Positions 2,383 to 63,146 of a stretch of 64,000 nucleotides of DNA are shown here, piece after piece. The translations under genes and the position numbers were made by a program. Below the pieces are notes generated by a model. It had not been told where the DNA came from. It saw nothing but the letters and a program-made list of their open reading frames with translations, and did no database searches. The stretch comes from Pirellulales bacterium (GTDB lineage: Bacteria; Planctomycetota; Planctomycetia; Pirellulales; UBA1268): contig JBIIQM010000001.1 of assembly GCA_044342075.1 (NCBI GenBank), forward strand, positions 15,847-79,846, written 5' to 3'. Positions within the stretch are counted from its first letter, which is position 1; every line of letters begins with the position of its first letter.

Positions 2383-2435
2383 GTAGGACAGGCTTCAGCC
2401 TGTCGCCGTTACTGACAGGCTGAAGCCTGTCCTAC
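2383..2435. repeat. REP inverted doublet
   Basis: GTAGGACAGGCTTCAGCCTGTC, a 9-nt spacer, then the exact reverse complement, between two convergent genes. Confidence 0.92.
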
Positions 2436-3526
2436 TTTTCCGGCACGGTGATCGTGAACTTCTGCTCGCCGGCCGAGTGTTTGAAAAACTCGTCGCGGTT
2501 CCACTGCGGCTGCTCCGAGTCCGTCGGCGATGGCAGATCAAACGTGGCCCGCAGTTCATAGGTGCGGTCGTCGAGCCGCGTGTAGCCGTAGGGCTGCTTC
2601 GTGACCGGGTCGACGGCGTCGACCACGAACGTGTCGGGATCCTTGGCGAGGTCGTCGAGCGTCGCGGGCAACGAGCCTCGCCGCGTGTGAAACTGCTCGA
2701 TGTTGGACTGGAGCGACCGCAGATCGCCGACCCGCTGGCCGTCGAGCCGCAGCATCCTCGCCCGCACCGGGCTGCCGATGAGGCCCAGCGCCGCGGCGAG
2801 CGCCGCCACCGCCATGGCCGTGCCGGCCCGGTCGAGCCACTTCCGCCAAGGCGGCGCGGGTGGCAGTGCGACCGAGTGAGAGGCTGCCCCTGCGCCGAGC
2901 GCCTCCTCGCGGCGGACGTCGCTCGAATACCAGAGATAGATGCCCCCCGCGATGGCCATGACGACGAGCGACTTGAGCGTGAACCGCAGCGTGGCATCGC
3001 CCTCCAGGAAGTTGATCACCAGGCAGATCAAATTGCCCGCCATGATGAGCGCCGTGACGAGGAGCGTGAAGTAGGCAAGTGCCCGATAGATGGGCGTCAT
3101 GCGGGCCATCGGGTTGGCGGCGGCGTCACGGGCGATCGTGCGGCGCACCAGGGCGAGGATCGGCAGTGACACGATCAGCGCGGCAGCTGCCCAACGGAGG
3201 ATTGGATACACGAACATGCCGCGGTCGCCCGGCAGCGGCAGCCAGCGGTCGATGAGCACGAAGAGGATCGAGCCGGTGGCGAGGGCCGCATGGTAGAGCG
3301 TGGCCGTGGAGAGCAGGTTCAAGAACGCGTCGCGTGGCGAGCTCGACACCCGCTTCCGCGGCACGGGCACCGGCAGCGGCGAATCGGCAAACTCATCGAG
3401 CGCGGTCTGCGCCTCGCGTGCCGACCAGCCCGCGTTCTCCAGGCCGCGAGCGATCTCGGCCCGCGACAGCCCCCGTTCGAGGCATGACTTCACGAAGGCG
3501 ACGAGCACGTCAGGGGCGGCTGGCAT
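2432..3526 (-). CDS. integral membrane protein of unknown function
   Basis: 364-aa ORF with a soluble helical N-terminal module, several hydrophobic spans and a soluble C-terminal domain. Its TAG stop lies in a REP head. Confidence 0.6.
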   Translation of the reverse strand: MPAAPDVLVAFVKSCLERGLSRAEIARGLENAGWSAREAQTALDEFADSPLPVPVPRKRVSSSPRDAFLNLLSTATLYHAALATGSILFVLIDRWLPLPGDRGMFVYPILRWAAAALIVSLPILALVRRTIARDAAANPMARMTPIYRALAYFTLLVTALIMAGNLICLVINFLEGDATLRFTLKSLVVMAIAGGIYLWYSSDVRREEALGAGAASHSVALPPAPPWRKWLDRAGTAMAVAALAAALGLIGSPVRARMLRLDGQRVGDLRSLQSNIEQFHTRRGSLPATLDDLAKDPDTFVVDAVDPVTKQPYGYTRLDDRTYELRATFDLPSPTDSEQPQWNRDEFFKHSAGEQKFTITVPEK

Positions 3527-4268: not shown

Positions 4269-4285
4269 TCTGCCACGAAAATCGA

Positions 4286-4319
4286 CCCGGCCGGGAGCCC
4301 TCTCCCGGCCGGGTTTTTT
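4286..4319 (+). terminator. rho-independent terminator of the Cys-rich gene
   Basis: CCCGGCCGGGAG-CCC-TCTCCCGGCCGGG stem-loop followed by TTTTTT, 18 nt after the stop codon. Confidence 0.8.
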
Positions 4320-4330
4320 CGTCGATGCAA

Positions 4331-4352
4331 GACAGGCTGAAGCCTGTCCTAC
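4331..4352 (-). repeat. REP unit (supplies the trxB stop)
   Basis: The plus strand reads GACAGGCTGAAGCCTGTCCTAC. Confidence 0.92.
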
Positions 4353-5410
4353 TTGCCTTGGGCGGCGAGCCAGCGTTCGGCGTCGAGGGCCGACATGCAA
4401 CCGGTGCCGGCGGCGGAGATCGCCTGGCGGTAGTAATCGTCGGCCACGTCGCCCGCCGCGAAGACTCCCTCCACGCTCGTGTCGGTACGGAAGTGCTTCT
4501 TCCAGACGATGTATTTCTTCGGCGTGAGCTCGAGCTGGCCGTCGAGGAAGGCGGTGTTCGGCGTGTGGCCGATGGCGAGGAAGACGCCCGCCACGTCGAC
4601 CTTCTCTTCTTTCCCCTTCTCCGTCGTGCTCTCCAGCCGCACGCCCGTCACACCCTTCGCGTCGTCACCGAGCACTTCGGCGAGCGCCGTGTTGAAGTGG
4701 ATCTTGATCTTGGGATCGTCGTGGGCGCGCTGGGCCATGATCTTCGAGGCCCGGAGGGCGTCGCGGCGGTGAACCAGGTGCACCGTGCTTGCAAACTTCG
4801 TGAGATAGGTCGCCTCTTCGACGGCCGAGTCGCCGCCGCCGACGACCACGAGCTCCTTGTTGCGAAAACGCGGCAAGGCACCATCGCAGACGGCGCAGGC
4901 GCTCACGCCCCGGTTCTTGAACCGCTCTTCGCTCGGCAGGCCGAGCCAGTTGGCGCTGGCGCCGGTGGCCACGATCACGCATGCCGCCTCGACCATGCCC
5001 CCTTCGCTCGGATACAGCTTGAAGGGCCGCTTCGAGAAATCAACCTTCACGATGTCGTCGGTGATGATTCGCGTGCCCATATTGACGGCCTGCTGACGCA
5101 TGAGCTCCATGAGCTCGGGACCGGTCACACCCTCGCCGGCATGGGGAGCCATCATCTGCCGCCGAGCCGCGGGCAGGGCGGAATCGAGAAACCCGCCGAG
5201 GTTGCCATGCGGGAAGCCGGCGTAGTTTTCGACTTCGCTCGTGAGGGCGAGCTGGCCGAGCGGGAGCGTGCCGGACATCCGGTTCTTCTCCGAGATCGCC
5301 CCCTCGTAGACGAGCGGCTTGAGCTGGGCGCGGGCGGCGTAGGTGGCGGCCGACCAGCCGGCGGGCCCGCTGCCGATGATGACGATGGTTTCGTGCGTGG
5401 ATGCGGCCAT
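4349..5410 (-). CDS. trxB: thioredoxin-disulfide reductase
   Basis: FAD motif [10 protein letters not shown], redox-active CAVCDG, NADPH motif [13 protein letters not shown]-terminal GVFAAGDV. Its TAG stop lies in a REP head. Confidence 0.93.
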
Positions 5411-7354: not shown

Positions 7355-7482
7355 AACGCGGCTCAGACCGCCCCACCAAGATCTGCGCCGCCTGCGGCCG
7401 GCCGTTCACGTGGCGCAAGAAATGGGAGCGTTGCTGGGAGCAGGTCCGCTACTGCAGCGACCGCTGCCGCGCTTCTACGTAG
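7330..7482 (+). CDS. DUF2256-type small zinc-ribbon protein
   Basis: 50-aa ORF with [29 protein letters not shown]. It overlaps the cstA end by 25 nt, and its TAG stop is in a REP head. Start choice is uncertain. Confidence 0.6.
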
Positions 7483-7557
7483 GACAGGCTTCAGCCTGTC
7501 GTGTCCAGATTCGCTTCCGGAGGAAGCGGTCTACAGACAGGCTGAAGCCTGTCCTAC
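7479..7557. repeat. REP inverted doublet with an inner GTAG-headed hairpin of a second class (7512-7534)
   Basis: Consensus units at 7479-7500 and 7536-7557. The inner element is CGCTTCC-GGA-GGAAGCG-GTCTAC. Confidence 0.9.
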
Positions 7558-9605
7558 TGGAGTTCACGATCCAAAAACGTCCAGCCGAGCGCGTCCATGA
7601 AGGCCCGCTGCTTGTTGTCGGCCGCGCCGCCGTGGCCGCCCTCGATGTTTTCGTAATAGAGCACCTGCTTGCCCTGCTCCATCAGGAGCGCCGTCATCTT
7701 ACGGGCGTGGCCAGGGTGCACGCGGTCATCGCGGGTGCTCGTCGTGATCAGGATCGGCGGGTGAGTCTTCGCCTTATCGACGTTGTGATAGGGGGAGAAG
7801 CCGCGGATGAAACGCCACTCCTCGGGTGAATCCGGGTTGCCGTATTCCCCCATCCAGCTCGCGCCGGCAAGGAGCGTGTGAAACCGGCGCATGTCGAGCA
7901 GCGGCACCTGGCAGACGACGCCGCCGAAGAGGTCGGGCCGCATCGCATACATGTTGCCCACGAGTAGGCCGCCGTTGCTGCCTCCTTTGACGCCGAGGTG
8001 CGCGGGAGACGTCACCTTCCGGCGGACGAGGTCTTCCGCCACCGCGATAAAGTCTTCATAGGCCCGCGGCCGCTTCTCCTTAAGGGCCGCCTGGTGCCAG
8101 GCGGGGCCGAATTCGCCGCCGCCGCGGATGTTGGCGATCACGTAGACGTTTTTCTGTTCGAGCCAGGCCGCGCCGGCGACCGGCTCGTAGCCGGGCAGCA
8201 GCGGGATCTCGAATCCGCCGTAGCCATAGAGCAGCGTGGGCGTGGAGCCGTCGAGCGGAAGATCGTGCGGCCCGATCTGGAAGTAGGGCACCCGCGTGCC
8301 GTCCTTCGAAACGGCCTCGTGCTGGGTCAGCTTTAGCCCCCGCGCGTCGAAGAACGCCGGCGCCTGCTTGAGCCTCTCCGGAGCCGCGCCCCCCACCGTG
8401 CCGAGCGCGAGCGTCGAGGGCTCGAGCGAGCTCGACGTGACGAGGAAGAAGTCGTCGGTTTCGATGTCATCGACCGGGATCGCGCTGCCGGTGCCGATCT
8501 CCGGCACGCCCGGCAGCGGCTCCCGCCGCCACTGGCCGTCGCGAAATGTGAGCGTGAAGAGCCGGTTGCGCACGTTGTCGAGCGTCGTGATGACGACGTG
8601 GTTTTTCGTGGTGGAGAAGCCCGCGAGCGACGTGCGTTCCGTGGGCTCGAAGAGCACGTGCAGCGTGCGGTCGCCGGCGAGAAACCGCTCGAAGTCGGCC
8701 GCCAGGAGGCTGCCCGCCTTGAACGCTTTTCCTCCGGCCTGCCAGTCGCTCCGCAATTCGACGAGCAGCCACTCGCGGTGGACGGCGGCATTGGCGTCGT
8801 CGGGCTTGTCTATCTTTACCAAGGCGCCACCACGGCTTAGAAACAGCTCGTTCGTCCAAAACGTGATCTGCCGCTGCACGAAGTCTCGCTCGAAGCCGGG
8901 CGTGAGATCGCGATAGGCGCCCACGCTCATGTCGTCAGTCCGCCCCTCGTAGACGGTCTTCGCCTCCGCCAGCGGCGCTCCCCGCCGCCATTCCCGCACC
9001 GTCCGCGGGTAGCCCGACGTCGTGAGCGACCCGGGGCCGAAGTCGGTGGCCACGAACAGGCTCTGCTCGTTCCGCCAGGCCACGTTGCTCTTTGCCTCCG
9101 GAAGCGCAAAGCCGCCATCCACGAACGCCCTCTTCTCGAGATCGAACTCGCGGACGACATCTGCATCCGCGCCGCCCCGCGAGAGCGAGACGAGGCAGAG
9201 CCGGTCTTGGGGTTCGAGCACGGTGGCCCCGTGCCAGACCCAGTTTTCATTTTCGGCCGCGGCGAGCGCGTCGAGATCGATCACGGTCTCCCAGGCCGGC
9301 TCGGGCTTCTTGTATTCCTCGAGCGTTGTCCGCCGCCAGAGCCCCTTCGGGTTCTTGGCGTCGCGCCAGAAGTTGTAGAAGCGGTCGCCGATCTTCGAGA
9401 CCATCGGGATCCGGTCCTTCGAATCGAGGATCGACCGAATCCGCGTTTCGAGCCGCTTGAACTCCTCCGACTCGGCGAGCGCCTTCACGCTCTCGGCATT
9501 CCGCGCCCGCGCCCACTCGAGCGGCTTTTCACCGGTTACGTCCTCGAGCCAGAGATGGGGGTCGTGGGGAGTCTCGCTCACTTCGGCAGCGTTGGTGGGA
9601 TGCAT
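7554..9605 (-). CDS. prolyl oligopeptidase family (S9A) serine peptidase
   Basis: N-terminal DPHLWLEDV plus a beta-propeller region. The C-terminal alpha/beta-hydrolase has GGSNGG (nucleophile Ser) and DDRVHP/GGHGG motifs. The ORF upstream of 9605 runs through REPs and proA and is not coding. Confidence 0.88.
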   Translation of the reverse strand: MHPTNAAEVSETPHDPHLWLEDVTGEKPLEWARARNAESVKALAESEEFKRLETRIRSILDSKDRIPMVSKIGDRFYNFWRDAKNPKGLWRRTTLEEYKKPEPAWETVIDLDALAAAENENWVWHGATVLEPQDRLCLVSLSRGGADADVVREFDLEKRAFVDGGFALPEAKSNVAWRNEQSLFVATDFGPGSLTTSGYPRTVREWRRGAPLAEAKTVYEGRTDDMSVGAYRDLTPGFERDFVQRQITFWTNELFLSRGGALVKIDKPDDANAAVHREWLLVELRSDWQAGGKAFKAGSLLAADFERFLAGDRTLHVLFEPTERTSLAGFSTTKNHVVITTLDNVRNRLFTLTFRDGQWRREPLPGVPEIGTGSAIPVDDIETDDFFLVTSSSLEPSTLALGTVGGAAPERLKQAPAFFDARGLKLTQHEAVSKDGTRVPYFQIGPHDLPLDGSTPTLLYGYGGFEIPLLPGYEPVAGAAWLEQKNVYVIANIRGGGEFGPAWHQAALKEKRPRAYEDFIAVAEDLVRRKVTSPAHLGVKGGSNGGLLVGNMYAMRPDLFGGVVCQVPLLDMRRFHTLLAGASWMGEYGNPDSPEEWRFIRGFSPYHNVDKAKTHPPILITTSTRDDRVHPGHARKMTALLMEQGKQVLYYENIEGGHGGAADNKQRAFMDALGWTFLDRELQ

Positions 9606-9628: not shown

Positions 9629-9650
9629 GACAGGCTGAAGCCCGTCCTAC
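9629..9650 (-). repeat. REP unit, variant (G-U in minus sense)
   Basis: GACAGGCTGAAGCCCGTCCTAC, 23 nt upstream of the peptidase ATG. Confidence 0.85.
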
Positions 9651-9701
9651 TGGAACGGGAGGCTTCGGGCGACCGAAGGCCGAATGGGTCGGGAGGCGAA
9701 G

Positions 9702-9814
9702 GGGGATCGGCGGAAGCTCGAGGAGCGTTAGGAACTTTCGAGCCGCAGCGGCAAAGGAGCGCCTCTGACGTTCAAGCGAGGAAGTTTCTCCGCGACGAGA
9801 CTTCTGCCGTCCCC
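9702..9814. repeat. MITE-like intergenic element, copy A (imperfect ~15-bp inverted termini)
   Basis: Left end GGGGATCGGCGGAAG, right end GACTTCTGCCGTCCCC. Homologous to 12133-12207. Confidence 0.6.
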
Positions 9815-9843
9815 CGAGCCGGGTTGGGCCCTTGCTGGGGCAT

Positions 9844-9865
9844 GACAGGCTGAAGCCTGTCCTAC
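9844..9865 (-). repeat. REP unit abutting the proA TGA
   Basis: Consensus 22-mer. The minus sense reads TGA-GTAGGACAGGC... Confidence 0.92.
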
Positions 9866-11125
9866 TCATGCGCGCACCTGGCCCGAACCGAGCACGATAA
9901 ACTTGTAGGTCGTCAGTTCCTTCGTGCCGCAGGGGCCGCGGGCGTGGAGCTTGTCGGTGGAGATGCCGATCTCTGCCCCCAGCCCCATTTCGCCACCGTC
10001 GTTGAACCGCGTGCTGGCGTTCACCATCACGACGGCCGTGTCGACCCGCGCGGCGAACCGATCGGCGGCGGCCTTGTCGGCCGTGACGATCGAGTCGGTG
10101 TGGCGGGAACCGTAGCGGTTGATGTGGTCGATCGCGCCGTCGACGGACTCGACGACGGCCACGGAGATCTTCGGGCCGAGGTATTCGGTGGCCCAGTCGG
10201 CCTCGGTCGCGGGGCCCGCCGTGGGCACGAGCTTCCGCGTGGCCTCGTCGCCCACGATCTCCACCTTGTGCTCGCCGAGTGCGGCGGCGACGTCGGGCAG
10301 GAACTTCGCCGCGATATCCCGGTGCACGAGCAGCGATTCGGCGGCGTTGCAGACACCCATCCGCTGGCACTTCGCGTTGACGGTGATCGCCTTGGCCATG
10401 GCGAGGTCGGCGGCCTTGTCGACATAGACGTGGCAGTTGCCGTTGAAGTGCTTGAGCACCGGCATCCGCGCCTCGGAGCAGACGCGGCGGATGAGCGTCT
10501 CGCCGCCGCGGGGGATGACGATGTCGATCAGGTCGTCCATCTTCAGGAATTCGCCGACAGCCTCGCGATCGGGCGTATCGACGAGCTGCACGCAGTCGAC
10601 GGGCAAGCCACTCGCCGCGATCGCGGCCCGCATGCTCTCGACGATTCGGCCGCTCGAATGGGCCGCTTCCTTGCCGCCGCGAAGGATGATGGCGTTGCCG
10701 GCGGCGAGGGCCACGGCCGCGGCATCGGCCGTGACGTTGGGCCGCGACTCGTAGATGAAGAAGACAACGCCCAGCGGCACGCGGATTTTTTTCACGACGA
10801 GGCCACTGGGCCGCGTGGTCTCCTCGAGCACCTCGCCCACGGGATCGGGCAGCAGGGCCACCGCCTCCACGCCGGCGGCAATCCCCTCCACGCGCTTCGC
10901 GTCGAGCGTGAGCCGGTCGATGGCGGCAGCCGTGAGGCCGAAGCCGGGGGCGGCGGCGACGTCGAGCTTGTTGGCGGCCAGGATCGCATCGACGTCGGCG
11001 CGGATGTGCGCGGCGGCGGCCTTCAGGCAGGCGGCCTTCTTTTCGGCGGGGATGTTGGCCAGATCGATCGCGGCGCGGCGGGCGCGGGTGGCGATGTCGC
11101 GGCAGTGCTGAGCGAGGTGTGACAT
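9866..11125 (-). CDS. proA: glutamate-5-semialdehyde dehydrogenase
   Basis: 419 aa with ProA-type motifs (VPLGVVFFIYESRPNVT, RGGKEA, NAKCQRMGVCNAAESLLVH, ASTRFNDGGE). Confidence 0.95.
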   Translation of the reverse strand: MSHLAQHCRDIATRARRAAIDLANIPAEKKAACLKAAAAHIRADVDAILAANKLDVAAAPGFGLTAAAIDRLTLDAKRVEGIAAGVEAVALLPDPVGEVLEETTRPSGLVVKKIRVPLGVVFFIYESRPNVTADAAAVALAAGNAIILRGGKEAAHSSGRIVESMRAAIAASGLPVDCVQLVDTPDREAVGEFLKMDDLIDIVIPRGGETLIRRVCSEARMPVLKHFNGNCHVYVDKAADLAMAKAITVNAKCQRMGVCNAAESLLVHRDIAAKFLPDVAAALGEHKVEIVGDEATRKLVPTAGPATEADWATEYLGPKISVAVVESVDGAIDHINRYGSRHTDSIVTADKAAADRFAARVDTAVVMVNASTRFNDGGEMGLGAEIGISTDKLHARGPCGTKELTTYKFIVLGSGQVRA

Positions 11126-11127
11126 GA

Positions 11128-11215
11128 GTGGGACAGGCTTCAGCCTGTCGAAGTAGGTCAGCCTTCAGGCTGACAATAAATGTCGATATTCCCGACAGGC
11201 TGAAGCCTGTCCTAC
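11128..11215. repeat. REP cluster of three units (GTGG-head variant, compensatory-stem variant, consensus)
   Basis: 11128-11149 GTGGGACAGGCTTCAGCCTGTC; 11153-11174 GTAGGTCAGCCTTCAGGCTGAC; 11194-11215 consensus in reverse orientation. Confidence 0.9.
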
Positions 11216-12096
11216 TGCTGCATCGTAACAAACAGTTCGAGCGCTGCCCGCACCTGCCCCACGGCGTGGACGCGAACGATCTGGATGCCCTGGGCGGCAA
11301 GGCCGCAGGCGGCCCCGGCCGTGCCCGCGTCGAGCTCGTCGAGCGTGGCGAGGCGGCCCAGGGCCTGCTCGATCGACTTGCCGATGAAGCCCTTCCGCGA
11401 ATGGCCGATGAGGATCGGCGCGCCGAGGTCGAGGAATCGGCCCGCGTTCGCCATCAGCTCGCGGTTGTGGGCATGGGTCTTTCCGAACCCGATTCCGGGA
11501 TCGAGGCAGATCTTTTCGAGCGGGATACCGGCGGCGAGCAGGGCGTCGCGGCGGGCGGCCAGATAGGCGTGTATCTCGGCGACGACTTCGTCGTAGCGCG
11601 GGTCGATCTGCATGGTCTGCGGCGTGCCCCGCATGTGCATGGCGCAGATGCCAGCTCCGCTCTCGCGGGCGACCCGCAGCATCTCGGCGTCGCCTTCAAG
11701 CCCCGTCACGTCATTGATGATCTCGGCGCCGAGTGCGATAGCCCGCGCGGCCACGCTCGCCTTCGAAGTGTCGATGGAGACGGGCACGCCCGCCTCGGCG
11801 GCCAATCGCTTCACGACCTCGCTCACGCGACGCAGTTCCTCGTCGGCAGCCACGGGCTCGGAATACGGCCGCGTGCTCTCCCCGCCCACGTCGAGAATGT
11901 CGGCGCCGTCGGCAGCGAGCTTGAGACCGTGGGCGACAGCGGCCTCGACCGAGTCGTGCCGGCCGCCATCGGAAAAACTGTCGGGGGTGACGTTGACGAT
12001 CCCCATCACGAGCGGCCGCCGGATCGCGCCGCCCGGATGCGGCAGGGCGAGGGCGCGGGTGCGAAGCTGCCAGTGAGTCGGTACGCGGATGTGCAT
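11212..12096 (-). CDS. folP: dihydropteroate synthase
   Basis: MGIVNVTPDSFSDGG, ADILDVGGESTRP and a pterin-binding fold through to GHSRK. ATG at 12096. Its TAG stop is in a REP head. Confidence 0.92.
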   Translation of the reverse strand: MHIRVPTHWQLRTRALALPHPGGAIRRPLVMGIVNVTPDSFSDGGRHDSVEAAVAHGLKLAADGADILDVGGESTRPYSEPVAADEELRRVSEVVKRLAAEAGVPVSIDTSKASVAARAIALGAEIINDVTGLEGDAEMLRVARESGAGICAMHMRGTPQTMQIDPRYDEVVAEIHAYLAARRDALLAAGIPLEKICLDPGIGFGKTHAHNRELMANAGRFLDLGAPILIGHSRKGFIGKSIEQALGRLATLDELDAGTAGAACGLAAQGIQIVRVHAVGQVRAALELFVTMQQ

Positions 12097-12132
12097 GCGG
12101 GATAATTTACACAACCAAAGGACGAGCGAGCC

Positions 12133-12207
12133 GGGGATCGGCGGAACGTCGACGAGCATTTGGACCGAGTCTTCGAGGGCCACCGCGAGGCGACTTCTGC
12201 CGTCCCC
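12133..12207. repeat. MITE-like intergenic element, copy B
   Basis: Same termini as copy A, with a similar left interior (GGCGGAACGTCGACGAGCATT versus GGCGGAAGCTCGAGGAGCGTT) and a shorter centre. Confidence 0.6.
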
Positions 12208-12239
12208 GGCGAGCGGTCTTCTTTCGAAGCGGTCTACGT

Positions 12240-12261
12240 GGCAGGCTGAAGCCCACCCTAC
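12240..12261 (-). repeat. REP unit, variant with two G-U pairs in minus sense
   Basis: Plus strand GGCAGGCTGAAGCCCACCCTAC; minus strand GTAGGGTGGGCTTCAGCCTGCC. Confidence 0.8.
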
Positions 12262-12818
12262 CACGGTTCTTCCATCAGGCCGACGATCTGCTGGGCCATC
12301 TTGACGATGCCTTCCTGCTGCGTCGTGACGACGGAGCGGCCGAATTCCGGCACGAGCATCGCCGCCTGGCCCACGTCCACGCTCGCCGCCGGCAGCGGCA
12401 CGTTGCCCGAGGCGAGCACGGAGCCGCCGCGATCGGCCCAGGTGACGAGCGCCTGGATGTTCATCTCCACCTGCCGCGACTGGTCGGTCGGGCTCTCGAC
12501 GACCATGCGTTTCGTGTCGGCCACGATCCGCGTCGTGAGCACGCTGTCGGCATTCGGGTCGCCCACCACCTTGAAGGGCGTGCGCTTTTCGATCTCCTTG
12601 CAGATCGCCTCGGTGAGCCGCTCGCCGAGATCGACGCCGGGCGTCGTGCGAAAGCTCTCCGACTGCACCATCGGCACGTAGACGGTGCGGACGTTTGGCG
12701 CGTAGAGCGTGTTGTTGCCGAAGCGGTAGCCGGCGCAGCCGACGGGGATCGTGATCGCGAGGGTGCACGCGATCATCGCAAGCACGGGCCGGCGCGGGTG
12801 GATGACTCTCGCGGCCAT
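12258..12818 (-). CDS. LptE-like lipoprotein
   Basis: Lipobox ITIPVG-C followed by C-AGYRFG. The body (VYVPMVQSESF..PGVDLGERLTEAICKEI) resembles LptE/RlpB-type LPS-assembly lipoproteins. Judged from motifs only. Confidence 0.55.
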   Translation of the reverse strand: MAARVIHPRRPVLAMIACTLAITIPVGCAGYRFGNNTLYAPNVRTVYVPMVQSESFRTTPGVDLGERLTEAICKEIEKRTPFKVVGDPNADSVLTTRIVADTKRMVVESPTDQSRQVEMNIQALVTWADRGGSVLASGNVPLPAASVDVGQAAMLVPEFGRSVVTTQQEGIVKMAQQIVGLMEEPW

Positions 12819-23458: not shown

Positions 23459-24436
23459 ATGAAACCGTCCACCGGAACCGTTCATCACGTCACCGCCGCC
23501 GAACGCGGCCAAACGCTCGCGGCCTTCCTGCGGGCCAAGCTCGGCGCGAGCTGGGGCCGCGTGCAGAAGATGGTGCGATCGCGGCACGTCATGATCCACG
23601 GCAACATCTGCACCGACGCCGCCCGGCGGCTGAAGGATGGCGAGGTGGTGAAGGTTTTGGAGGTGGCGGCGACCGCGCCCCCGAAGGCCGACGACGTGCG
23701 GATCGTCTTCGTCGACGATCAGGTGGTCGTGGTCGAGAAGCCCACGGGGATCACCACGACGCGTCACACTGAGGAGCTCTCCTGGCCCACCCGCCGCCGG
23801 CAGGTGCAGCCCACGCTCGACGAGATGGTGCCGGAGGCGATTCACCAGCACCTCGCGCGGAAGTTCGGCGGCCGCGGGAAGAAGCCGCGGCGGCTGCCGC
23901 CGGTGCGCGCGGTCCACCGCATCGACCGCGAGACGAGCGGCCTCGTCGTCTTCGCGCGGACGGTTCCCGCCGAACGAATCCTCGCCGAGCAGTTTCGGGC
24001 CCACACGACGGAGCGCCGCTACCTCGCGCTCTGCGTGGGCCGCGTGGGATCCGGTTCGATCATCACGAATCTCGTCCGCGATCGGGGCGACGGCCGTCGC
24101 GGCTCGTCGGGCACCGAGGAAGGCAAGCGGGCCGTCACCCACGTCGAGCCGGTCGAGCACTATGGCGACGCCTACACGCTCGTAGCCTGCCGGCTCGAAA
24201 CGGGCCGCACCCACCAGATTCGCATCCACATGGCGGAGACGGGGCATCCCGTCTGTGGCGAGCGGGTCTACTCGGCGCCGCGGCATCTCAAGGTGACCGA
24301 CGACTCGGCCGCGCCACGGGTGATGCTCCACGCCGCCGAGCTCGGCTTCGTGCATCCGGAGACAGGCGAATTGATCCGGTTCGAAAGCCCGCTCCCCGCC
24401 GACATGAAAAAAACCCTTTCTCTCCTCCGCAAGTAG
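23459..24436 (+). CDS. RluA-family pseudouridine synthase (RluD-like, S4 domain plus catalytic domain)
   Basis: S4-like N-terminus and catalytic HRIDRETSGLVVFA. ATG at 23459 (GTG at 23441 possible). Its TAG stop is in a REP head. Confidence 0.88.
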   Translation: MKPSTGTVHHVTAAERGQTLAAFLRAKLGASWGRVQKMVRSRHVMIHGNICTDAARRLKDGEVVKVLEVAATAPPKADDVRIVFVDDQVVVVEKPTGITTTRHTEELSWPTRRRQVQPTLDEMVPEAIHQHLARKFGGRGKKPRRLPPVRAVHRIDRETSGLVVFARTVPAERILAEQFRAHTTERRYLALCVGRVGSGSIITNLVRDRGDGRRGSSGTEEGKRAVTHVEPVEHYGDAYTLVACRLETGRTHQIRIHMAETGHPVCGERVYSAPRHLKVTDDSAAPRVMLHAAELGFVHPETGELIRFESPLPADMKKTLSLLRK

Positions 24437-24485
24437 GACAGGCTTCAGCCTGTCGGAGTCCGGTGGGGCAGGCTTCCAGCCTGCC
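24433..24485 (+). repeat. two tandem REP units (consensus plus GTGG-head variant with a 5-nt loop)
   Basis: 24433-24454 consensus; 24463-24485 GTGGGGCAGGCTTCCAGCCTGCC. Confidence 0.88.
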
Positions 24486-26965: not shown

Positions 26966-27019
26966 GTAGACCGCTTGCTCCGCAAGCGGATCTGCTTGGC
27001 AGGCTGAAGCCTACCCTAC
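26966..27019. repeat. class-2 GTAG hairpin (26966-26989) plus REP variant (26998-27019)
   Basis: GTAGACCGCTTGC-TCC-GCAAGCGG, then GGCAGGCTGAAGCCTACCCTAC. Confidence 0.85.
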
Positions 27020-27681
27020 TCGGGCTCGCCGATCTGGCGGAGCAGTTCGGCCATGCGGGCCTGCAGGTCGAGCATCGCCTGCCAGTTCGGGAATTCGAGT
27101 TCCACCTTCTCGTTGCCCGGCCGCATCACGGCGCCCTCCGTCGCCTCGCGGAGCACGCCCTGCACGTAGTCGAGCAGCTCGGCGAGCTCAGCCGACTGTG
27201 CCGGGCTCAACCGTCCGGGCAACGGCGGTGGCCCACCGGGCAGGAGCGGCGCACGCACCTCGGAGAGATCCTCGATCACGTCCGATTGATGCGCCGCGAG
27301 CCGCTTCATCTGGTCGTCCATCTGGCGACGAACCGACTCCGCCTCGGGATGCTTCGCCGCGATCTCGGCGATCCGCCGGTCGATGTCGCTATGGGAGCCG
27401 ACGAGCAGGAGTGAACGGCCGACCGAGATCAGGTCGCCATCGCGGACGATCCGCACCTGGATGTCTTCGCCGTTGACCTTCGTGCCGTTGGTGCTCTCGA
27501 GGTCGGTGAGGACGATCTTCTCGTTGTCTTCCTGCAGCTTGAGGTGGTAGCGGCTGATCCGCTCGTCGTTGAGCTGGATCGAGTTCCCCTCTTCGCGGCC
27601 GATCGTGACGGGCGTGGGCAGATCGTCGAAGATCCGCCCGCGATCGGCACCGTGCAGCACTCTGAGCGTGACGTGTCCCAT
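27016..27681 (-). CDS. FHA domain protein
   Basis: N-terminal FHA motifs (IGREEGNSIQL.D..ISRYH, STNGT.VNG) and a helical C-terminal half. The ORF extends to 27726. Its TAG stop is in a REP head. Confidence 0.85.
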   Translation of the reverse strand: MGHVTLRVLHGADRGRIFDDLPTPVTIGREEGNSIQLNDERISRYHLKLQEDNEKIVLTDLESTNGTKVNGEDIQVRIVRDGDLISVGRSLLLVGSHSDIDRRIAEIAAKHPEAESVRRQMDDQMKRLAAHQSDVIEDLSEVRAPLLPGGPPPLPGRLSPAQSAELAELLDYVQGVLREATEGAVMRPGNEKVELEFPNWQAMLDLQARMAELLRQIGEPE

Positions 27682-43138: not shown

Positions 43139-43555
43139 TCACTCCGTGGTCGGCACGTGCGGCTCCACCGCAGTCACCGTCTTGCGGGCGATATCACGGG
43201 CAGCGACAGCGTCTTGCCGCGTGTAAAAACCGGATGGCGTGAGATCCTCGGCACCGTAAAAGGCGAGTTCCCGGTCACGCCGCAGAGTCCGCGAGCCAGC
43301 CGCGAGGGCCTCGACGTGTGGCTGAACCGCCCGGGGAAGCCGCGATTTCTCTGCCGTGAGCACCTCCGACACATCGTGGATTCGCGGTGGCTCGATGCCG
43401 GAGCCCCGCAGCAGGCCCTTGAGCGCCAGCTCCACGACTTCCTGCGACTCCCGCACCACGTCCGCCCAGCTGTGGGCGGCAAAGAGTGCGTCCAGGGCCG
43501 CCAGCCGCGCCTTCGCCCGGCGAACGTAGTCTGCTGCGAGTTCAGGACTGCGCAT
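43139..43555 (-). CDS. HEPN domain protein (putative toxin partner of the MNT)
   Basis: About 138 aa, all-helical, with the HEPN-like core SRTLRRDRELAFYG. Its start overlaps the MNT gene end by 14 nt. The ORF extends to 43630. Confidence 0.65.
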   Translation of the reverse strand: MRSPELAADYVRRAKARLAALDALFAAHSWADVVRESQEVVELALKGLLRGSGIEPPRIHDVSEVLTAEKSRLPRAVQPHVEALAAGSRTLRRDRELAFYGAEDLTPSGFYTRQDAVAARDIARKTVTAVEPHVPTTE

Positions 43556-44165
43556 CGAAACCCTCGTCGATCCAGTAGGGCTGGCCCTGAGCCATGCGCC
43601 GCACCAGCCCGCCCGCCGCAATGCGTTCACGGATGCTGATCAGCCGCCGTGACAACGCCAGATTGCGATCGTAGAGAACGATCCCGCAGACTGCGGCTTC
43701 CGCCCAACTGCCAGACACGCGATCGTCTGCCGCGGGCAGATGCACGAAATGGAGGTCGACTTCGCGGCCATCCCAGGCCAGCGCCCTCTCCTCCCACTCG
43801 CGATACAGCGCCCGAGTGATCGGCCTGCCTGAGCGGACCACGGCGAGCAGATCGACGTCCGACGTGGTGGAGAGATCATCGCGGGCGAACGACCCGTGCA
43901 GCACGATCCCCTCGAGATCGTCGCCGAGCCACGATCGGATCGACAGTACGACCTCCGCGGCGGCGACCCCGCCGGCGCCAGGGGCCGCCAGCATGCGACC
44001 GCACCATTCGTTGAGTGAAACGCCTGCCGTCAGGGCATCCTGCCGAAGCAGGTCGTGGAGCCGGGCGTCGAGACGCAAAACGAATGTGCCGGATGCGGGA
44101 GATCGGCGTGCAGCCCGAGCCCCGGGCGGACGGCCCGCGGAGCGCGGCTTGATACTGTTACCCAT
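43542..44165 (-). CDS. minimal nucleotidyltransferase (MNT) with N-terminal RHH/HicB-like DNA-binding module
   Basis: LRLDARLHDLLRQDALTAGVSLNEW (ribbon-helix-helix-like) followed by the NTase motif HGSFARDDLSTTSDVDLL. Confidence 0.75.
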   Translation of the reverse strand: MGNSIKPRSAGRPPGARAARRSPASGTFVLRLDARLHDLLRQDALTAGVSLNEWCGRMLAAPGAGGVAAAEVVLSIRSWLGDDLEGIVLHGSFARDDLSTTSDVDLLAVVRSGRPITRALYREWEERALAWDGREVDLHFVHLPAADDRVSGSWAEAAVCGIVLYDRNLALSRRLISIRERIAAGGLVRRMAQGQPYWIDEGFDAQS

Positions 44166-44580: not shown

Positions 44581-45438
44581 ATGCGTTTCCTCGCGTTTCT
44601 ATCTCGCAGTCTGCTTCTGTCTACGATCGCGGCGGCCTTGGCCGTGGCGGCGGTCGCGTGTGCACCCCGCCCGGCGGCCGGCGACGTGATCTTCATGGCA
44701 TCGGGCACTTCCAGCCTCGGCACACCGGTGGCGTTTCAGGCCCAGTTCTCCATCGACGGAGACAACCTGAAGATCGTGCTCGACAACCTGTCTCCCAAAG
44801 ACACGACCGACGCGGCCGAAGTGCTCACCAGTTTCTACTTCGACATCTGGAACGGCACGACCCGGCCGACGCTCAAATACGAGAGCGCAAGCGGCTTCGT
44901 CTTTCAGGTGAAGAGGGGGCGGGACAACGACGTGCCGGTCTACTACACGCCGCAGAGATACGAGAAAGCGGAAGACAAGCCGAGCAACCTGCTGGCAAAG
45001 GAGAAAGGCGATGCCTCCTGGCAGTTTTTGGAGATGGATCCCGCGCATGCCCCAAATCTCGGCGTTGGGATCGGCACGGTCGCCAACAATGGCCTCAAGC
45101 CGAACGATTTCACGGCGGCGGTCGTGGGGCCCGCGGGCAACGACTTCATCAACTTCGGGATCTACCGGGGGGGCGATATCAACCCCAGCGGTGTCCTCAA
45201 CAACAAATACGTGGTGAAGAACACCGCCACGTTCAACTTCACCGGGGTGGGCAACTACAAGGAGACCGACATCCGGCCCAAGGCGGTGTTTGGCCTTGGC
45301 ACGACGCCGGACTCGATCGTGGTGGTGCCGGAGCCGAGCACAATCGTGATCGCCGCGAGCGGCGTCCTGCTCACAGCGTGGCGCGCAGGGCGGCGTCGAA
45401 AGGCAGGCTGGAAGCCTGCCCCACCGACGACAGGCTGA
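44581..45438 (+). CDS. PEP-CTERM sorting-domain protein
   Basis: Signal peptide MRFLAFLSRSLLLSTIAAALAVAAVA. C-terminal VVPEPSTIVIAASGVLLTAWRAGRRRK plus an 11-aa tail and stop codon that are encoded by REP units. Confidence 0.8.
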   Translation: MRFLAFLSRSLLLSTIAAALAVAAVACAPRPAAGDVIFMASGTSSLGTPVAFQAQFSIDGDNLKIVLDNLSPKDTTDAAEVLTSFYFDIWNGTTRPTLKYESASGFVFQVKRGRDNDVPVYYTPQRYEKAEDKPSNLLAKEKGDASWQFLEMDPAHAPNLGVGIGTVANNGLKPNDFTAAVVGPAGNDFINFGIYRGGDINPSGVLNNKYVVKNTATFNFTGVGNYKETDIRPKAVFGLGTTPDSIVVVPEPSTIVIAASGVLLTAWRAGRRRKAGWKPAPPTTG

Positions 45439-45450
45439 AGCCTGTCCTAC
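45402..45450 (-). repeat. two tandem REP units overlapping the 3' end of the PEP-CTERM CDS
   Basis: 45402-45424 GGCAGGCTGGAAGCCTGCCCCAC; 45429-45450 consensus. Confidence 0.88.
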
Positions 45451-52313: not shown

Positions 52314-53014
52314 CCGACCAGCAGGCCGCGACGGGCTCCACTTCGGCAGCCGCACCCGCGGGCCCCGGTGGCCGCCACACCGCGTTTGGCCGCTGTCTCT
52401 ATGCCGCGCTCTGGGTGATCTGCCGCACGCTCGGCATCTCGGTCTTCGGCGTGCGCACACGCTTCGCCGAGCCTTTGCCGAAGACGGGCGGCCTGCTCGT
52501 GCTCTCGAGCCACCAGAGCCATCTCGATCCGCTGCTCTTGGGCCTCGCCTGCGACCGGCGGCTTTCGAGCCTCGCCCGCGCGTCGCTCTACAAGTTCAAG
52601 CCGTTCGGCTACGTGATCACGGCGCTCGATGCGGTGCCGATCGACCGTGAGGCCTCCACGGTGGCGGCGATGAAGGCCGTGATCCGGAGGCTGGAAGCGG
52701 GCGCGGCGGTAGTCGTCTTTCCGGAGGGCACGCGCACCCCCACGGGCCGGCTCACCGATCTCAAGAGCGGTTTCGCACTGTTGGCAAAGCGGGCGAAGGT
52801 GCCGATCGTGCCCGTGGCGATCGTCGGCGCCTGGGAATGCTGGCCGCGCACTCGGCTCTTCCCGCAGCCGGGCCGCGTGCGGCTCGAGTTTGGCAAGCTG
52901 CTGATGCCCGAGGAGATCGCCGCCATGGACGAGCGGCAGATCCTCGCCGAATGCACCGCGCGGCTCACGGCCCTCGACGCCGAAGCCCGCCGCATCCGCA
53001 ATCACGGAAAGTAG
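52310..53014 (+). CDS. plsC: 1-acyl-sn-glycerol-3-phosphate acyltransferase
   Basis: ATGA overlap with cmk. HX4D (SHQSHLD) and FPEGTR motifs. Its TAG stop is in a REP head. Confidence 0.85.
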   Translation: MTDQQAATGSTSAAAPAGPGGRHTAFGRCLYAALWVICRTLGISVFGVRTRFAEPLPKTGGLLVLSSHQSHLDPLLLGLACDRRLSSLARASLYKFKPFGYVITALDAVPIDREASTVAAMKAVIRRLEAGAAVVVFPEGTRTPTGRLTDLKSGFALLAKRAKVPIVPVAIVGAWECWPRTRLFPQPGRVRLEFGKLLMPEEIAAMDERQILAECTARLTALDAEARRIRNHGK

Positions 53015-53090
53015 GACAGGCTTCAGCCTGTCATGAAGCACGACAGGCTGAAGCCTGTCATGAAGCACGACAGGCTGAAGCCTGTCCTAC
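53011..53090. repeat. REP cluster of three units with a duplicated 27-bp (spacer plus unit) block
   Basis: Units at 53011-53032, 53042-53059 and 53069-53090. The ATGAAGCAC spacer occurs twice. Confidence 0.92.
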
Positions 53091-56367: not shown

Positions 56368-57846
56368 ATGAAACCCACCACGGCTGAGGAACTCGCGCAC
56401 CGCGCCCAGGAACTGCAGCTGGTCGGTGCCGCCCATCTGGGCGAAGCCTGGACCGAGCTCGGCGGCCACAACGTGCCGATCGAGAAGCTCGGCGCCGTTC
56501 TCGTCCGCCGCGAATTGCTCACGGGCTATCAGCTCGAGCGGCTGCTCAAGGGGGAGCGGACCGGATTCTTCTTCGGGAAGGCCAAGCTGCTCTATCAGAT
56601 CGGCGCCGGCTCGTTCGCCCGGGTCTTCCGCGCGATCAACATCGAAGACGGCAGCATCCTGGCCGTGAAGGTGCTCCGCAGCCGATTCAGCGCCGATGCG
56701 GAGAAGTGCCGGGCGTTTCGCCGCGAGGGCGAGATGGGGCGGCTGCTGCGGCATCCTCATATCGTCGCGATCGAGGACGTGGGGCAGGAAGGCAACACGA
56801 CCTACATCACGATGGAGTTTCTCGAGGGGCAGACGCTGCGCGAGCTCGTGCGAATCCGCGGCGCTCTCGATCTGCCCCGCGCGCTCGATCTCATCCTGCA
56901 GATGGTGTCGGGGCTCGAGTATGCCCATCGCCGTGGCGTGACACACCGCGATCTCAAGGCTTCCAACGTGCTCGTCTCCTCGACGGGGCAGGCCAAGCTC
57001 GTCGATTTCGGGCTCGCCGGCGTCGATGCCGAGGCGGGAGACCGGCACCTCGACCGCACGGAGCAGCCGCGCACGGTGGATTATGCCGCGCTCGAAAAGC
57101 TCTCCGGCATGAAGGACGACAGCCTGCGGAGCGACATCTACTTCCTCGGCACGATCGCCTACCTCACGCTCTCCGGCAAGCCGGCGCTGGCCGAATCGAG
57201 GGACCGGCTCGTGCGGTCCGATCCGCGGCGATTCACGGGGGTCGCGCCCCTCGCGACGGTCGCCGCCGACCTCCCGCGCGACGTGGCCGACGTCGTCGGG
57301 CGGATGATGCAGATCGATCCACTCGAGCGCTGGCAGACGGCCGCCGACGTCCGGCGGGCGCTCGAACCGCTCACCACGAAGTATGCCGCGGGGGGCGCCG
57401 GCCCCAGGTTGGCGACCCGCGATTCCAGCGAATTTCCGGCGCCGTCGGCGATGAGCGCCGAGCGGGCCGCCACGAAGGGCACGATCATGGTGGTCGAGAC
57501 CTCGCAGAAGGCGCAGGAAGCCCTGCGGAGTTTCTTCACGAAGCTTGGCTACCGGGTGCTGGTGACGGAAAACCCCGATCGCGCACTCGTGCGGTTTTCG
57601 ACCACGCCGCTGCCGGCCGACTGTCTCGTGATGAGCACGCAATCGCTCGGCGACGCGGCGGTGCACGCCTTCAACAGGCTCTCGACCGACGCATTCTTCG
57701 CGGCCGTGCCCGCGATCCTGCTCACGAGCCCCAAGCAGAAGTCCCTCTCCAAGCAGGCGAAGCTCGACGGCCTGCGCAAGGTGCTGGAAACGCCGATCCG
57801 CACCGCGGAGATGACGAAGCTGCTCGACTCGCTCGTGAAGAAGTAG
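56368..57846 (+). CDS. Ser/Thr protein kinase with C-terminal degenerate receiver-like domain
   Basis: Kinase motifs GAGSFARVF, AVK, HRDLKASNVLV, DFG. The C-terminal ~120 aa are REC-like. Its TAG stop is in a REP head. Confidence 0.88.
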   Translation: MKPTTAEELAHRAQELQLVGAAHLGEAWTELGGHNVPIEKLGAVLVRRELLTGYQLERLLKGERTGFFFGKAKLLYQIGAGSFARVFRAINIEDGSILAVKVLRSRFSADAEKCRAFRREGEMGRLLRHPHIVAIEDVGQEGNTTYITMEFLEGQTLRELVRIRGALDLPRALDLILQMVSGLEYAHRRGVTHRDLKASNVLVSSTGQAKLVDFGLAGVDAEAGDRHLDRTEQPRTVDYAALEKLSGMKDDSLRSDIYFLGTIAYLTLSGKPALAESRDRLVRSDPRRFTGVAPLATVAADLPRDVADVVGRMMQIDPLERWQTAADVRRALEPLTTKYAAGGAGPRLATRDSSEFPAPSAMSAERAATKGTIMVVETSQKAQEALRSFFTKLGYRVLVTENPDRALVRFSTTPLPADCLVMSTQSLGDAAVHAFNRLSTDAFFAAVPAILLTSPKQKSLSKQAKLDGLRKVLETPIRTAEMTKLLDSLVKK

Positions 57847-57921
57847 GACAGGCTTCAGCCTGTCGCAAGTAGGACAGGCTTCAGCCTGTCGCGATTCATG
57901 ACAGGCTAAAGCCTGTCCTAC
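57843..57921. repeat. REP cluster of three units
   Basis: Units at 57843-57864, 57869-57890 and 57900-57921 (loop variant TAAA). Confidence 0.92.
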
Positions 57922-58848: not shown

Positions 58849-60288
58849 ATGGCTCGTTCCGTTTCACTCGCAGTCGACCTTGGGGCGTCTGGCGGCCGTG
58901 TGGTGTCGGGGGCGTTCGATGGCAGGCTGATCGAGCTGGAGGAGATCCATCGGTTCGAGAATGGACCGGTGGCGCTCGGTGGCGAACTCGTCTGGGATCT
59001 CGTCCGACTCTGGCAGGAGGTGGTGAACGGGCTGCGGGCCTCGGCGGCGCGGCATGGCAAGGCGGTGACGACGGTCGGCGTCGACACCTGGGGGGTCGAT
59101 TACGCCTTTCTCGGTGCCGATGGCGGGCTGCTCGCGAACCCCCTCTGCTACCGCGACCCGCGCAACCGCGGCATGATCGAGGTGGCCGAAAAGACCGTGC
59201 CGCGCGACGAGATCTTCGCCGCCACCGGCCTGCAGTTCATGGATCTCAATTCGCTCTATCAGCTGCTGGCGATGCAGCGCCGCCGCTCGTCGGCGCTCGC
59301 GGCCGCCGAGCGGATGCTGATGGTTCCCGATATCTTCCACTGGCTGCTCTCGGGCGAGGCCTCCAATGAACACACCAACGCCTCCACGTCGCAGTGCTAC
59401 GACCCGCAGCGGCATGACTGGGCCTTCGGCCTCATCGAGCGATTCGGGCTGCCGCGGCGGATCTTCGGCCCGCTCGTCGAGCCGGGCACCGTGCTGGGGA
59501 GCCTGCGGACCGATGTCGCGGCCGAGACCGGCCTCTCCGGCACCCGCGTCGTCGTCCCCGGCACGCACGACACGGCCAGCGCCGTCGCAGCCGTGCCCGC
59601 CACCGACCCGCCGAGCGCGCGGCCCGATTGGTGCTATGTGAGCCTCGGCACCTGGGCCCTCGTGGGGGCGGAGCTCGATCGCCCGCTCGTCACGCCGGCC
59701 TGCCTGGCCCGCAACTTCACCAACGAGGGTGGCATCGGCGGCACGACGCGGCTCCTCAAGAATGTCTGCGGCCTCTGGCTCGTGCAGCAGTGCCGCGCCG
59801 CCTGGCAGCGGGCGGGCAAGGATTGGACATGGGAGCAGCTGACGTCACTGGCCGCCGAGGCGCCGCCGCTTGCCACGATCATCGATCCCAATCATCCCTC
59901 GCTGGTGGCGCCGCCCGACATGCCCGAGGCGATCCGGGCGCTGGCGAAGGCTTCGGGCCAGCCGGTGCCCGAATCGACGGGCGCGGTGGTGCGGACGGCG
60001 CTCGAGAGCGTGGCCGCCGCCGTGAGCCGCACGCTCGAGGAACTCGATTCGCTCGTCGGCCGCCGGATCGGCCGGGTGCACGTCGTGGGAGGCGGAGTGA
60101 AGAACGCGCTGCTCTGCCAAATGATCGCCGATGCCACCGGCCGCCCGGTGATCGCCGGCCCGGTGGAGGCCACGGCGATCGGCAACCTGCTCGTGCAGAT
60201 CATGGCCCGCGAGGGCAGCGTCGATCTACGGAGCGTGCGGCAGGTGGTTCGCGATAGTTTCGAGCTCGCGCACTTCGAGCCACGGTAG
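58849..60288 (+). CDS. rhaB: FGGY-family sugar kinase, rhamnulokinase-like
   Basis: ATG 9 nt after GGGAGG. AVDLGASGGRV, F.N.PV..GG.L.WD, VDTWGVDY and a C-terminal GGG.KN.LL.Q..AD motif. The upstream part of the 58426 ORF is rejected. Confidence 0.75.
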   Translation: MARSVSLAVDLGASGGRVVSGAFDGRLIELEEIHRFENGPVALGGELVWDLVRLWQEVVNGLRASAARHGKAVTTVGVDTWGVDYAFLGADGGLLANPLCYRDPRNRGMIEVAEKTVPRDEIFAATGLQFMDLNSLYQLLAMQRRRSSALAAAERMLMVPDIFHWLLSGEASNEHTNASTSQCYDPQRHDWAFGLIERFGLPRRIFGPLVEPGTVLGSLRTDVAAETGLSGTRVVVPGTHDTASAVAAVPATDPPSARPDWCYVSLGTWALVGAELDRPLVTPACLARNFTNEGGIGGTTRLLKNVCGLWLVQQCRAAWQRAGKDWTWEQLTSLAAEAPPLATIIDPNHPSLVAPPDMPEAIRALAKASGQPVPESTGAVVRTALESVAAAVSRTLEELDSLVGRRIGRVHVVGGGVKNALLCQMIADATGRPVIAGPVEATAIGNLLVQIMAREGSVDLRSVRQVVRDSFELAHFEPR

Positions 60289-60354
60289 GGTAGGCTTCAG
60301 CCTGCCTGATCGCTGCCGGGTCCGATAGGCGTGACAGGCTGAAGCCTGTCCTAC
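60285..60354. repeat. REP inverted doublet (variant plus consensus)
   Basis: 60285-60306 GTAGGGTAGGCTTCAGCCTGCC; 60333-60354 consensus in reverse orientation. Confidence 0.9.
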
Positions 60355-63099: not shown

Positions 63100-63146
63100 G
63101 GCAGGCTGAAGCCTGCCCTACTTCAGCAGGCTAAAGCCTACCCTAC
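63100..63146 (-). repeat. two tandem REP variants
   Basis: 63100-63121 GGCAGGCTGAAGCCTGCCCTAC; 63125-63146 AGCAGGCTAAAGCCTACCCTAC. Confidence 0.85.

Follow-up and report, generated by a model that had tools for sequence, protein, structure and literature searches.

Repetitive extragenic palindromic elements (REPs) tagged by GTAG were described in more than 80 species, including the planctomycetes Rhodopirellula baltica and Planctomyces, by Di Nocera, De Gregorio & Rocco (2013; BMC Genomics 14:522; PMC3733652), who took frequent G-T pairing as a hint of an RNA role and reported that the REP terminus supplies TAG stop codons. Messing et al. (2012; PMC3479197) found that the REP-associated tyrosine transposase (RAYT) binds the GTAG-strand REP hairpin as single-stranded DNA (ssDNA); binding depends on the 5' GTAG, and the inverted REP is not bound. 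Here, we analyse a family of such repeats in a 64,000-nt stretch of DNA (64 kb; hereafter the window, meaning the whole stretch) from a Pirellulales bacterium (GenBank assembly GCA_044342075.1, contig JBIIQM010000001.1, positions 15,847 to 79,846). Read from the GTAG head, the stems of this family tolerate G-U pairs more readily than A-C mismatches, and a preliminary description made from the letters of the window had attributed this asymmetry to purifying selection on an RNA hairpin in the 3' untranslated region (3' UTR) of the upstream gene, and not merely on a DNA palindrome. That argument is a rediscovery of the one made in 2013. The asymmetry is also present in copies lying antisense to their neighbours, and on balance we favour the reading that the polarity of the REP belongs to the element and not to the neighbouring mRNA, the GTAG strand having to fold as a single strand, which is the ssDNA-hairpin substrate of the RAYT.

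The REPs of Escherichia coli, together with their bacterial interspersed mosaic elements (BIMEs) and the transposase RayT (TnpA_REP), share with the window repeats the GTAG head and an apical TTCA or TTTA loop, as in GGCGTT(C/T)ACGCC (PMC3479197). Their stem is longer and must contain a bulge with an A-C/A-G mismatch, which the protein recognises, whereas the window REP has seven perfect pairs and G-T as the sole tolerated irregularity. The families of PMC3733652 have in common with the window family the 5' GTAG/GTGG tag, a 6–9-bp stem, a short loop, sub-families with alternative complementary stem residues and outer-head (HH) dimers between convergent genes. The GACAGGC TTCA GCCTGTC stem and loop was not found in the text or supplements of that paper, and a full-text literature search for the core GGCTTCAGCC returned, among the matches listed, unrelated primer sequences only. 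In the REPINs of Pseudomonas fluorescens (Bertels & Rainey 2011, as cited in PMC3733652), two inverted REPs also form a longer hairpin and copy number is dynamic within populations. Unlike REPINs as they are outlined there, many window copies are singletons or head-to-tail tandems, and the changes seen between strains involve 26–27-nt single-REP units, not whole dimers.

The SMAG repeats of Stenotrophomonas maltophilia, reportedly described by Rocco and colleagues in 2010, are said to be GTAG palindromes of a high-GC genome that lie very near the stops of open reading frames (ORFs) and were proposed to stabilise the upstream mRNA; they differ from the window REP in their stem sequences and in their host phylum.

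A GTAG-class REP family in the window

The repeat has the 22-nt consensus GTAG GACAGGC TTCA GCCTGTC, which comprises a 4-nt head, a 7-bp stem and a 4-nt loop. Searching with up to three mismatches from the 22-mer returned 21 sites in the window, versus none in 100 shuffled sequences, and looser criteria gave 26 copies, all of them intergenic or overlapping a stop codon only (genes were annotated with a codon model, with support from Pfam). GTAG heads are carried by 21 copies and GTGG heads by 3; one copy, the tandem duplicate at 53042-53063, is headless and is the single departure from the earlier statement that heads vary only as GTAG or GTGG. Two copies have 5-nt loops, and the copies are arranged as HH dimers, head-to-tail tandems and singletons (Table 1). 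The consensus hairpin folds at −10.9 kcal/mol as RNA and −6.1 kcal/mol as DNA (z approximately −4.5), and the REP dimer at 2386-2432 folds into a 20-pair stem. Given the short palindrome, the GT[AG]G foot, the high extragenic copy number, the inverted dimers and clusters and the turnover described below, these repeats are GTAG-class REP elements. An Rfam scan of the window returned two tRNAs only, with no family at gathering score on the REPs.

The window has a GC content of 67% and encodes hallmark proteins of planctomycetes, namely DUF1559 proteins with an N-terminal methylation motif, YTV-repeat proteins and PEP-CTERM proteins. Contigs 98–100% identical to it were found in freshwater metagenomes, and one contig of a Pirellulales metagenome-assembled genome (MAG), L087, from a related species, is 88% identical to one stretch of it. 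The host of the window is an uncultured freshwater planctomycete allied to Pirellulales MAGs.

Pairing and wobble in the REP stems

All of the stem cells that depart from Watson-Crick pairing in the window are G-U pairs in the GTAG sense (seven cells across five copies, with no A-C and no other mismatch), and two of the 26 copies are fully compensated. The six variant copies singled out in the preliminary description (9629, 11153, 12240, 26998, 60285 and 63125) read as given there, including 11153-11174, which is compensated and perfectly paired. Because the T at stem position 3 is common to four copies, independent events are few: about four G-U events are represented, and the p value from the window by itself is roughly 0.06–0.12, not 1/128.

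A pooled sample of 503 non-redundant copies was assembled from the window, about 260 loci fetched via two collection scans and strain contigs, using criteria symmetric for G-U and A-C (a GTAG or GTGG head, a TTCA or TTTA loop and at least 5 of 7 Watson-Crick pairs). Its non-Watson-Crick stem cells comprise 81 G-U, 13 A-C and 44 others, and A-C is therefore far from being as common as G-U. The claim that every single-sided substitution is a G-U pair, correct for the window, does not extend to the family, given these 13 A-C and 44 other cells. Counted over 97 distinct stem types, the cells are 31 G-U, 12 A-C and 36 others (binomial p=0.005); stem types with exactly one odd pair number 21, 5 and 15, respectively, and the copies intermediate between compensated Watson-Crick types are 28 with G-U versus 5 with A-C. 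The share of standard pairs is 92.9% when the cells are read in the GTAG sense and 90.1% on the other strand. Read from the GTAG head, G-T/U wobble is about 3–6 times more tolerated than A-C, as a bias and not as an absolute rule.

The covariation check proposed in the preliminary description gave a score of 0.708 versus 0.166 in shuffles (0/500), with all seven pairs altered on both sides, and the stem is under selection for pairing, via compensatory change. Watson-Crick compensation is strand-symmetric, so covariation itself gives no strand. The upper stem and loop, GGC TTCA GCC, are moreover conserved in sequence, beyond pairing. The G-U excess could have reflected mere variability of the 5' arm, the 3' arm being the one read by the RAYT; this was ruled out, as the G-U pairs come from seven change types per arm.

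Orientation of the copies relative to genes

Within the window, 22 of the 26 REPs are in sense with an upstream gene, whose stop codon is contained in 14 of them, which favours the reading that selection acts on an mRNA hairpin. In those 14 copies the head's TAG is itself the upstream stop codon, which is why GTAG sense and coding sense coincide in the window. The coincidence is not universal, contrary to what had been stated for the abutting genes: both neighbours of 11128(+), and both of the compensated copy 11153(+), lie on the opposite strand.

We classed the copies of the wider sample by the coding strand of their flanks, with a coding-frame caller that matched the window annotation at 24/24 copies tested. 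Copies downstream of a same-strand gene (sense; n=252) contained 34 G-U and 9 A-C cells, and copies whose only nearby gene 3' end belongs to the opposite strand (antisense; n=109) contained 17 and 2; the two ratios do not differ (Fisher p=0.48). Under stringent gene calls in co-directional spacers, in which sense and antisense copies of the wider family are equally represented, the counts were 11 G-U and 2 A-C in sense copies (n=57) and 7 and 1 in antisense copies (n=56). As the bias is the same in sense and antisense copies, the wobble follows the element's own polarity and not the direction of transcription. Of the proposal that purifying selection acts on an mRNA hairpin, the selection on pairing and the preference for G-U stand. 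The remainder, selection at the level of the mRNA, is not established, and the orientation test, with its equally strong bias in antisense copies, counts against it.

RAYT-like genes and turnover of the family

A RAYT-like ORF of 164 aa with HVH and YIYHNP motifs is present in the metagenome contig L202, bracketed by exact copies of the 22-mer and by REP-dimer arrays, the same 'REPtron' layout in which inverted REPs bracket the RAYT gene of E. coli. It was matched by E. coli RayT in tblastn (2e-6) and by Pfam Y1_Tnp at 22.7 bits. In L193, a RAYT-like gene is likewise bracketed by the identical 22-mer and scores 21.2 bits; both scores are slightly below the 23-bit cut-off. The RAYT-like gene of L247 reaches 39.9 bits, but its flanking REP differs. 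The proteins of L202 and L193 are 37% identical to each other, beside an identical 22-mer, and the sampled RAYTs are about 24% identical to E. coli RayT. The RAYT-like gene in L193 (near 2702) takes its TGA stop from the loop of an opposite-strand REP, as does a gene of the window at 45429-45450(-).

The REP family has been recently active. The hairpin of REP 12240 is missing from four strain contigs about 99% identical to the window, and the empty allele retains ...CCC TGG TAG; the filled and empty states of 12240-12261 can be compared between the window and L118, L119, L128, L129 and L130. Three contigs that are empty at 12240 and span the site carry instead a GGTAGGC/GCCTGCC REP 130 nt downstream. 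One of these two empty sites retains the GTAG, which is the LptE stop, and the other, 130 nt downstream in the window, is without GTAG. The 57843-57890 array contains one, two or three forward units in contigs 98–99% identical to the window, the extra units being the G-U variant GACGGGC, and the 53042 copy, a 27-nt duplication, is absent in 10 related contigs. In L120, the orthologue of 53011-53032 has its loop flipped (GTAG GACAGGC TGAA GCCTGTC), which looks like hairpin inversion or conversion by an adjacent inverted copy. L087, at 88% identity, has a REP identical to the 24433 copy at the same RluD-like stop, and its orthologue of 24463 (GTGG GATAGGC TTTA GCCTGTC) combines one compensated pair with one wobble.

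The G-U variants recur as multi-copy subfamilies, among them GACGGGC/GCCTGTC (13 copies), CGCAGGC/GCCTGTG and GGTAGGC/GCCTGCC. Such variants owe their numbers to propagation and do not represent separate outcomes of purifying selection gene by gene.

The identical 22-mer is also found in MAGs labelled Planctomycetota (Pirellulales, Planctomycetia) and Acidobacteriota (Terriglobia, Thermoanaerobaculia), including Mb-scale contigs (L001-L117 and L131-L250). A wider design, GTAGG-NNN-GGCTTCAGCC-NNN-C, in which three stem pairs are left free, occurs among the matches listed in Gamma-, Beta- and Alphaproteobacteria. The occurrence of an identical 22-mer across phyla beside RAYTs that are 37% identical points to deep conservation of the REP or else to its horizontal transfer.

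Polarity of the element or of the mRNA

As the RAYT binds the GTAG-strand hairpin in ssDNA, the same strand asymmetry is expected without any RNA. Under the reading that we favour, the RAYT would copy the 22-nt hairpins around the genome, and the form required to fold would be the GTAG strand, single-stranded and bound as a DNA hairpin. A G-T wobble would still allow a variant to be copied, a tolerance of the RAYT that this reading predicts, and such variants would give rise to the multi-copy subfamilies; variants with A-C on the GTAG strand would drop out. Once resident, the hairpins would be co-transcribed in 3' UTRs and would probably also act as RNA stem-loops, for which the E. coli REPs offer plausible roles by analogy, either as a 3'-exonuclease barrier or through ribosome interference at the stop adjoining the hairpin. 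An RNA function is plausible, and the G-U pattern does not demonstrate it.

Several observations weigh against assigning the polarity to the transposition substrate. A tblastn search with E. coli RayT found no RAYT gene within the 64-kb window, and the codon-bias caller behind the gene orientation in the fetched loci was validated on this window only. The antisense copies could carry wobble inherited from a master copy, and RNA-level selection on the masters is compatible with the orientation test. Energetics favour the RNA reading: as DNA, the wobble variants fold at −2.8 to −4.1 versus −6.1 kcal/mol for the consensus, a loss of a third to half, whereas RNA hairpins lose almost nothing with wobble.

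Purifying selection on a 3'-UTR RNA hairpin of the upstream gene, functioning as an exonuclease barrier or as a modulator of translation termination and retaining G-U pairs while A-C is removed, is in our view an unlikely source of the asymmetry. Besides the placement of the window copies, it draws on the RNA energies of the G-U variants, which are nearly unchanged (−9.3 to −11.0 kcal/mol, the consensus standing at −10.9) and collapse to −4.4 to −6.3 kcal/mol on the other strand. REP 4331, with a stop codon on one side and a terminator-like hairpin on the other, is probably transcribed, and the orthologous copy in L087 shows compensation and wobble in place at 88% identity. Work on E. coli cited in PMC12306157 reports an effect on translation for REPs lying no more than 15 nt from a stop codon, and the G-T argument of PMC3733652 is identical. 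These points have to be set against the equally biased antisense copies, against the equal numbers of sense and antisense copies in the co-directional spacers of the wider family, against the propagated nature of the G-U variants, against the sequence conservation of GGC TTCA GCC, which points to recognition by a protein, and against the fact that the GTAG strand is the known RAYT ssDNA substrate (PMC3479197).

REP heads as stop codons

TAG is the stop codon of 19 of the 41 window genes, an unusually high share for a genome of 67% GC, and 14 of these 19 TAG codons are REP heads in frame with the upstream gene (Table 1). For about one gene in three the REP head is the TAG, and the hairpin begins one base after the stop. 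Two further REPs (2383 and 9844) begin 0–1 nt past a TGA stop. In the wider sampled family the stop codon is supplied by 20 of 190 copies, far below the 14 of 26 in the window.

In 19 of 23 copies GTAG follows an A, and 11 of the 14 copies that supply a stop are among them, so the head seems to travel with the element. The alternative that GTAG is always a pre-existing insertion target is weakened by the same count. The last sense codon of the REP-stopped genes is mostly xAG (6 AAG, 3 GAG and 2 CAG), because A precedes GTAG in most copies.

The hairpin might have become, in this lineage, an RNA-level module fused to the stop codon and selected to modulate translation termination or the stability of the mRNA 3' end, which we regard as improbable. 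If true, the spread of the REP would have rewritten stop-codon usage and 3'-UTR architecture genome-wide. In a related variant of this reading, suggested by the single empty site at LptE, the hairpin body would integrate beside pre-existing (G)TAG stops.

Mutational input and termination

Strand-biased mutation, as opposed to selection on wobble pairing, is an improbable explanation of the pattern. On this view, C>T and A>G changes (deamination) would accumulate preferentially on the GTAG strand, perhaps when RAYT-mediated copying leaves it single-stranded, and would yield G-T. The unpaired positions do vary in the same way: among the pooled loops, TTCA predominates (362 copies), with 19 TTTA (C>T) and 2 TCCA (T>C), and pooled heads are GTAG in 375 and GTGG (A>G) in 22, G>A and T>C heads being absent from the 30 commonest flanking 4-mers. 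Strand-specific C>T/A>G input may therefore contribute to the wobble pattern, and this too leaves selection on the RNA unestablished. Every uncompensated change in the window, including one head and two loop changes, is likewise C>T or A>G. However, these head and loop variants may be the sole functionally tolerated ones, GT[AG]G degeneracy being known (PMC3733652), and the extensive two-sided compensation represents real selection on pairing. The bias is independent of transcription, so it is not ordinary deamination of the non-template strand, and the element is without neutral reference positions by which a mutation spectrum could be calibrated.

That the REP hairpins are Rho-independent terminators, a role included in the preliminary description, is very improbable: although they are GC-rich 7-bp hairpins at gene 3' ends and a simple scan picks out REP 2414 and the 2386-2432 dimer, where a T run happens to follow, no U tract is conserved behind the 3' arm in 24 aligned copies, some copies lie just 5' of the next gene in an operon-like array (9629, for example), and a distinct hairpin is found beyond REP 4331. 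The latter (4284-4315), between convergent genes, has a GC-rich stem of 13–14 bp with T runs on both strands and resembles a bidirectional terminator.

Features of the window

Table 1. The 26 REP copies of the window, with their strand and relation to genes and to other copies
Feature	Position	Strand	Remarks
REP consensus	2383..2404	+	Begins 1 nt past TGA of carA-like gene 1239-2381; HH dimer with 2414
REP consensus	2414..2435	-	TAG (2432-2434) is stop of gene 2432-3508(-)
REP consensus	4331..4352	-	TAG is stop of thioredoxin-reductase-like gene 4349-5410(-)
REP consensus	7479..7500	+	125 nt beyond CstA gene end (7354); HH dimer with 7536
REP consensus	7536..7557	-	TAG is stop of S9 peptidase gene 7554-9605(-); tail adjoins second-family hairpin GTAGACCGCTTCC
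REP variant GACGGGC/GCCTGTC	9629..9650	-	One G-U, pair 4; sense; 24 nt 5' of next gene start
REP consensus	9844..9865	-	Right after TGA of proA-like gene 9866-11125(-)
REP, GTGG head, consensus stem	11128..11149	+	Antisense to both flanking minus-strand genes
REP variant GTCAGCC/GGCTGAC	11153..11174	+	Two transversion pairs, both compensated; all 7 pairs Watson-Crick; antisense to each flanking gene; HH dimer with 11194
REP consensus	11194..11215	-	TAG is stop of folP-like gene ending at 11212(-)
REP variant GGTGGGC/GCCTGCC	12240..12261	-	Two adjacent G-U; TAG is stop of LptE gene 12258-12818(-)
REP consensus	24433..24454	+	TAG is stop of RluD-like gene ending at 24436(+)
REP variant GTGG GGCAGGC TTCCA GCCTGCC	24463..24485	+	5-nt loop; tandem after 24433
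REP variant GGTAGGC/GCCTGCC	26998..27019	-	One U-G, pair 3; TAG is stop of FHA-domain gene 27016-27660(-)
REP variant GTGG GGCAGGC TTCCA GCCTGCC	45402..45424	-	5-nt loop; tandem after 45429
REP consensus	45429..45450	-	Loop on other strand (TGAA) is TGA stop of convergent gene 44644-45438(+)
REP consensus	53011..53032	+	TAG is stop of acyltransferase gene 52310-53014(+); HH dimer with 53069
Headless hairpin copy	53042..53063	-	27-nt tandem duplication
REP consensus	53069..53090	-	TAG is stop of gene ending at 53087(-)
REP consensus	57843..57864	+	TAG is stop of protein kinase gene 56368-57846(+)
Tandem REP	57869..57890	+	26-nt unit; tandem with 57843; HH dimer with 57900
REP, TTTA loop	57900..57921	-	TAG is stop of PAPS-reductase gene 57918-58652(-)
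REP variant GGTAGGC/GCCTGCC	60285..60306	+	One U-G; TAG is stop of FGGY kinase gene ending at 60288(+); HH dimer with 60333
REP consensus	60333..60354	-	TAG is stop of gene ending at 60351(-)
REP variant GGCAGGC/GCCTGCC	63100..63121	-	A-T to G-C, fully compensated; tandem after 63125
REP variant GGTAGGC TTTA GCCTGCT	63125..63146	-	Two G-U; TAG is stop of gene ending at 63143(-)

A second GTAG-headed hairpin family, GTAG A CCGCTT[C/G]C TCC G[G/C]AAGCGG, was observed at 7505-7535(-), 26966-26995(+) and 12205-12239(-). It shows a compensated C-G/G-C pair between copies and always adjoins the tail of a main-family REP. The co-directional spacers 9651-9843(-) and 12097-12239(-) share a repeat about 110 nt long, whose cores are GGGGACGGCAGAAGTC and TTCCGCCGATCCC and for which no Rfam match was obtained.

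The window also contains a giant ORF of 3,789 aa (31546-42915(+)) and the gene of a YTV-repeat protein (45582-48062(-)), whose 90-nt DNA repeats dominate the list of direct repeats. A HEPN/nucleotidyltransferase gene pair at 43139-44078(-) looks like a toxin-antitoxin pair.

Conclusions

The wobble asymmetry in REP stems cannot be taken to indicate RNA function: the strand concerned is also the ssDNA substrate of the transposase, and the asymmetry persists in copies antisense to genes. The element class, the G-T pairing argument and the TAG stops supplied by REPs have already been published, and the significance of the present family beyond REP biology is small. For the evolution of REPs and RAYTs, it may be of interest for the unusually high share of stop codons derived from REP heads and for the presence of an identical 22-mer across two phyla.

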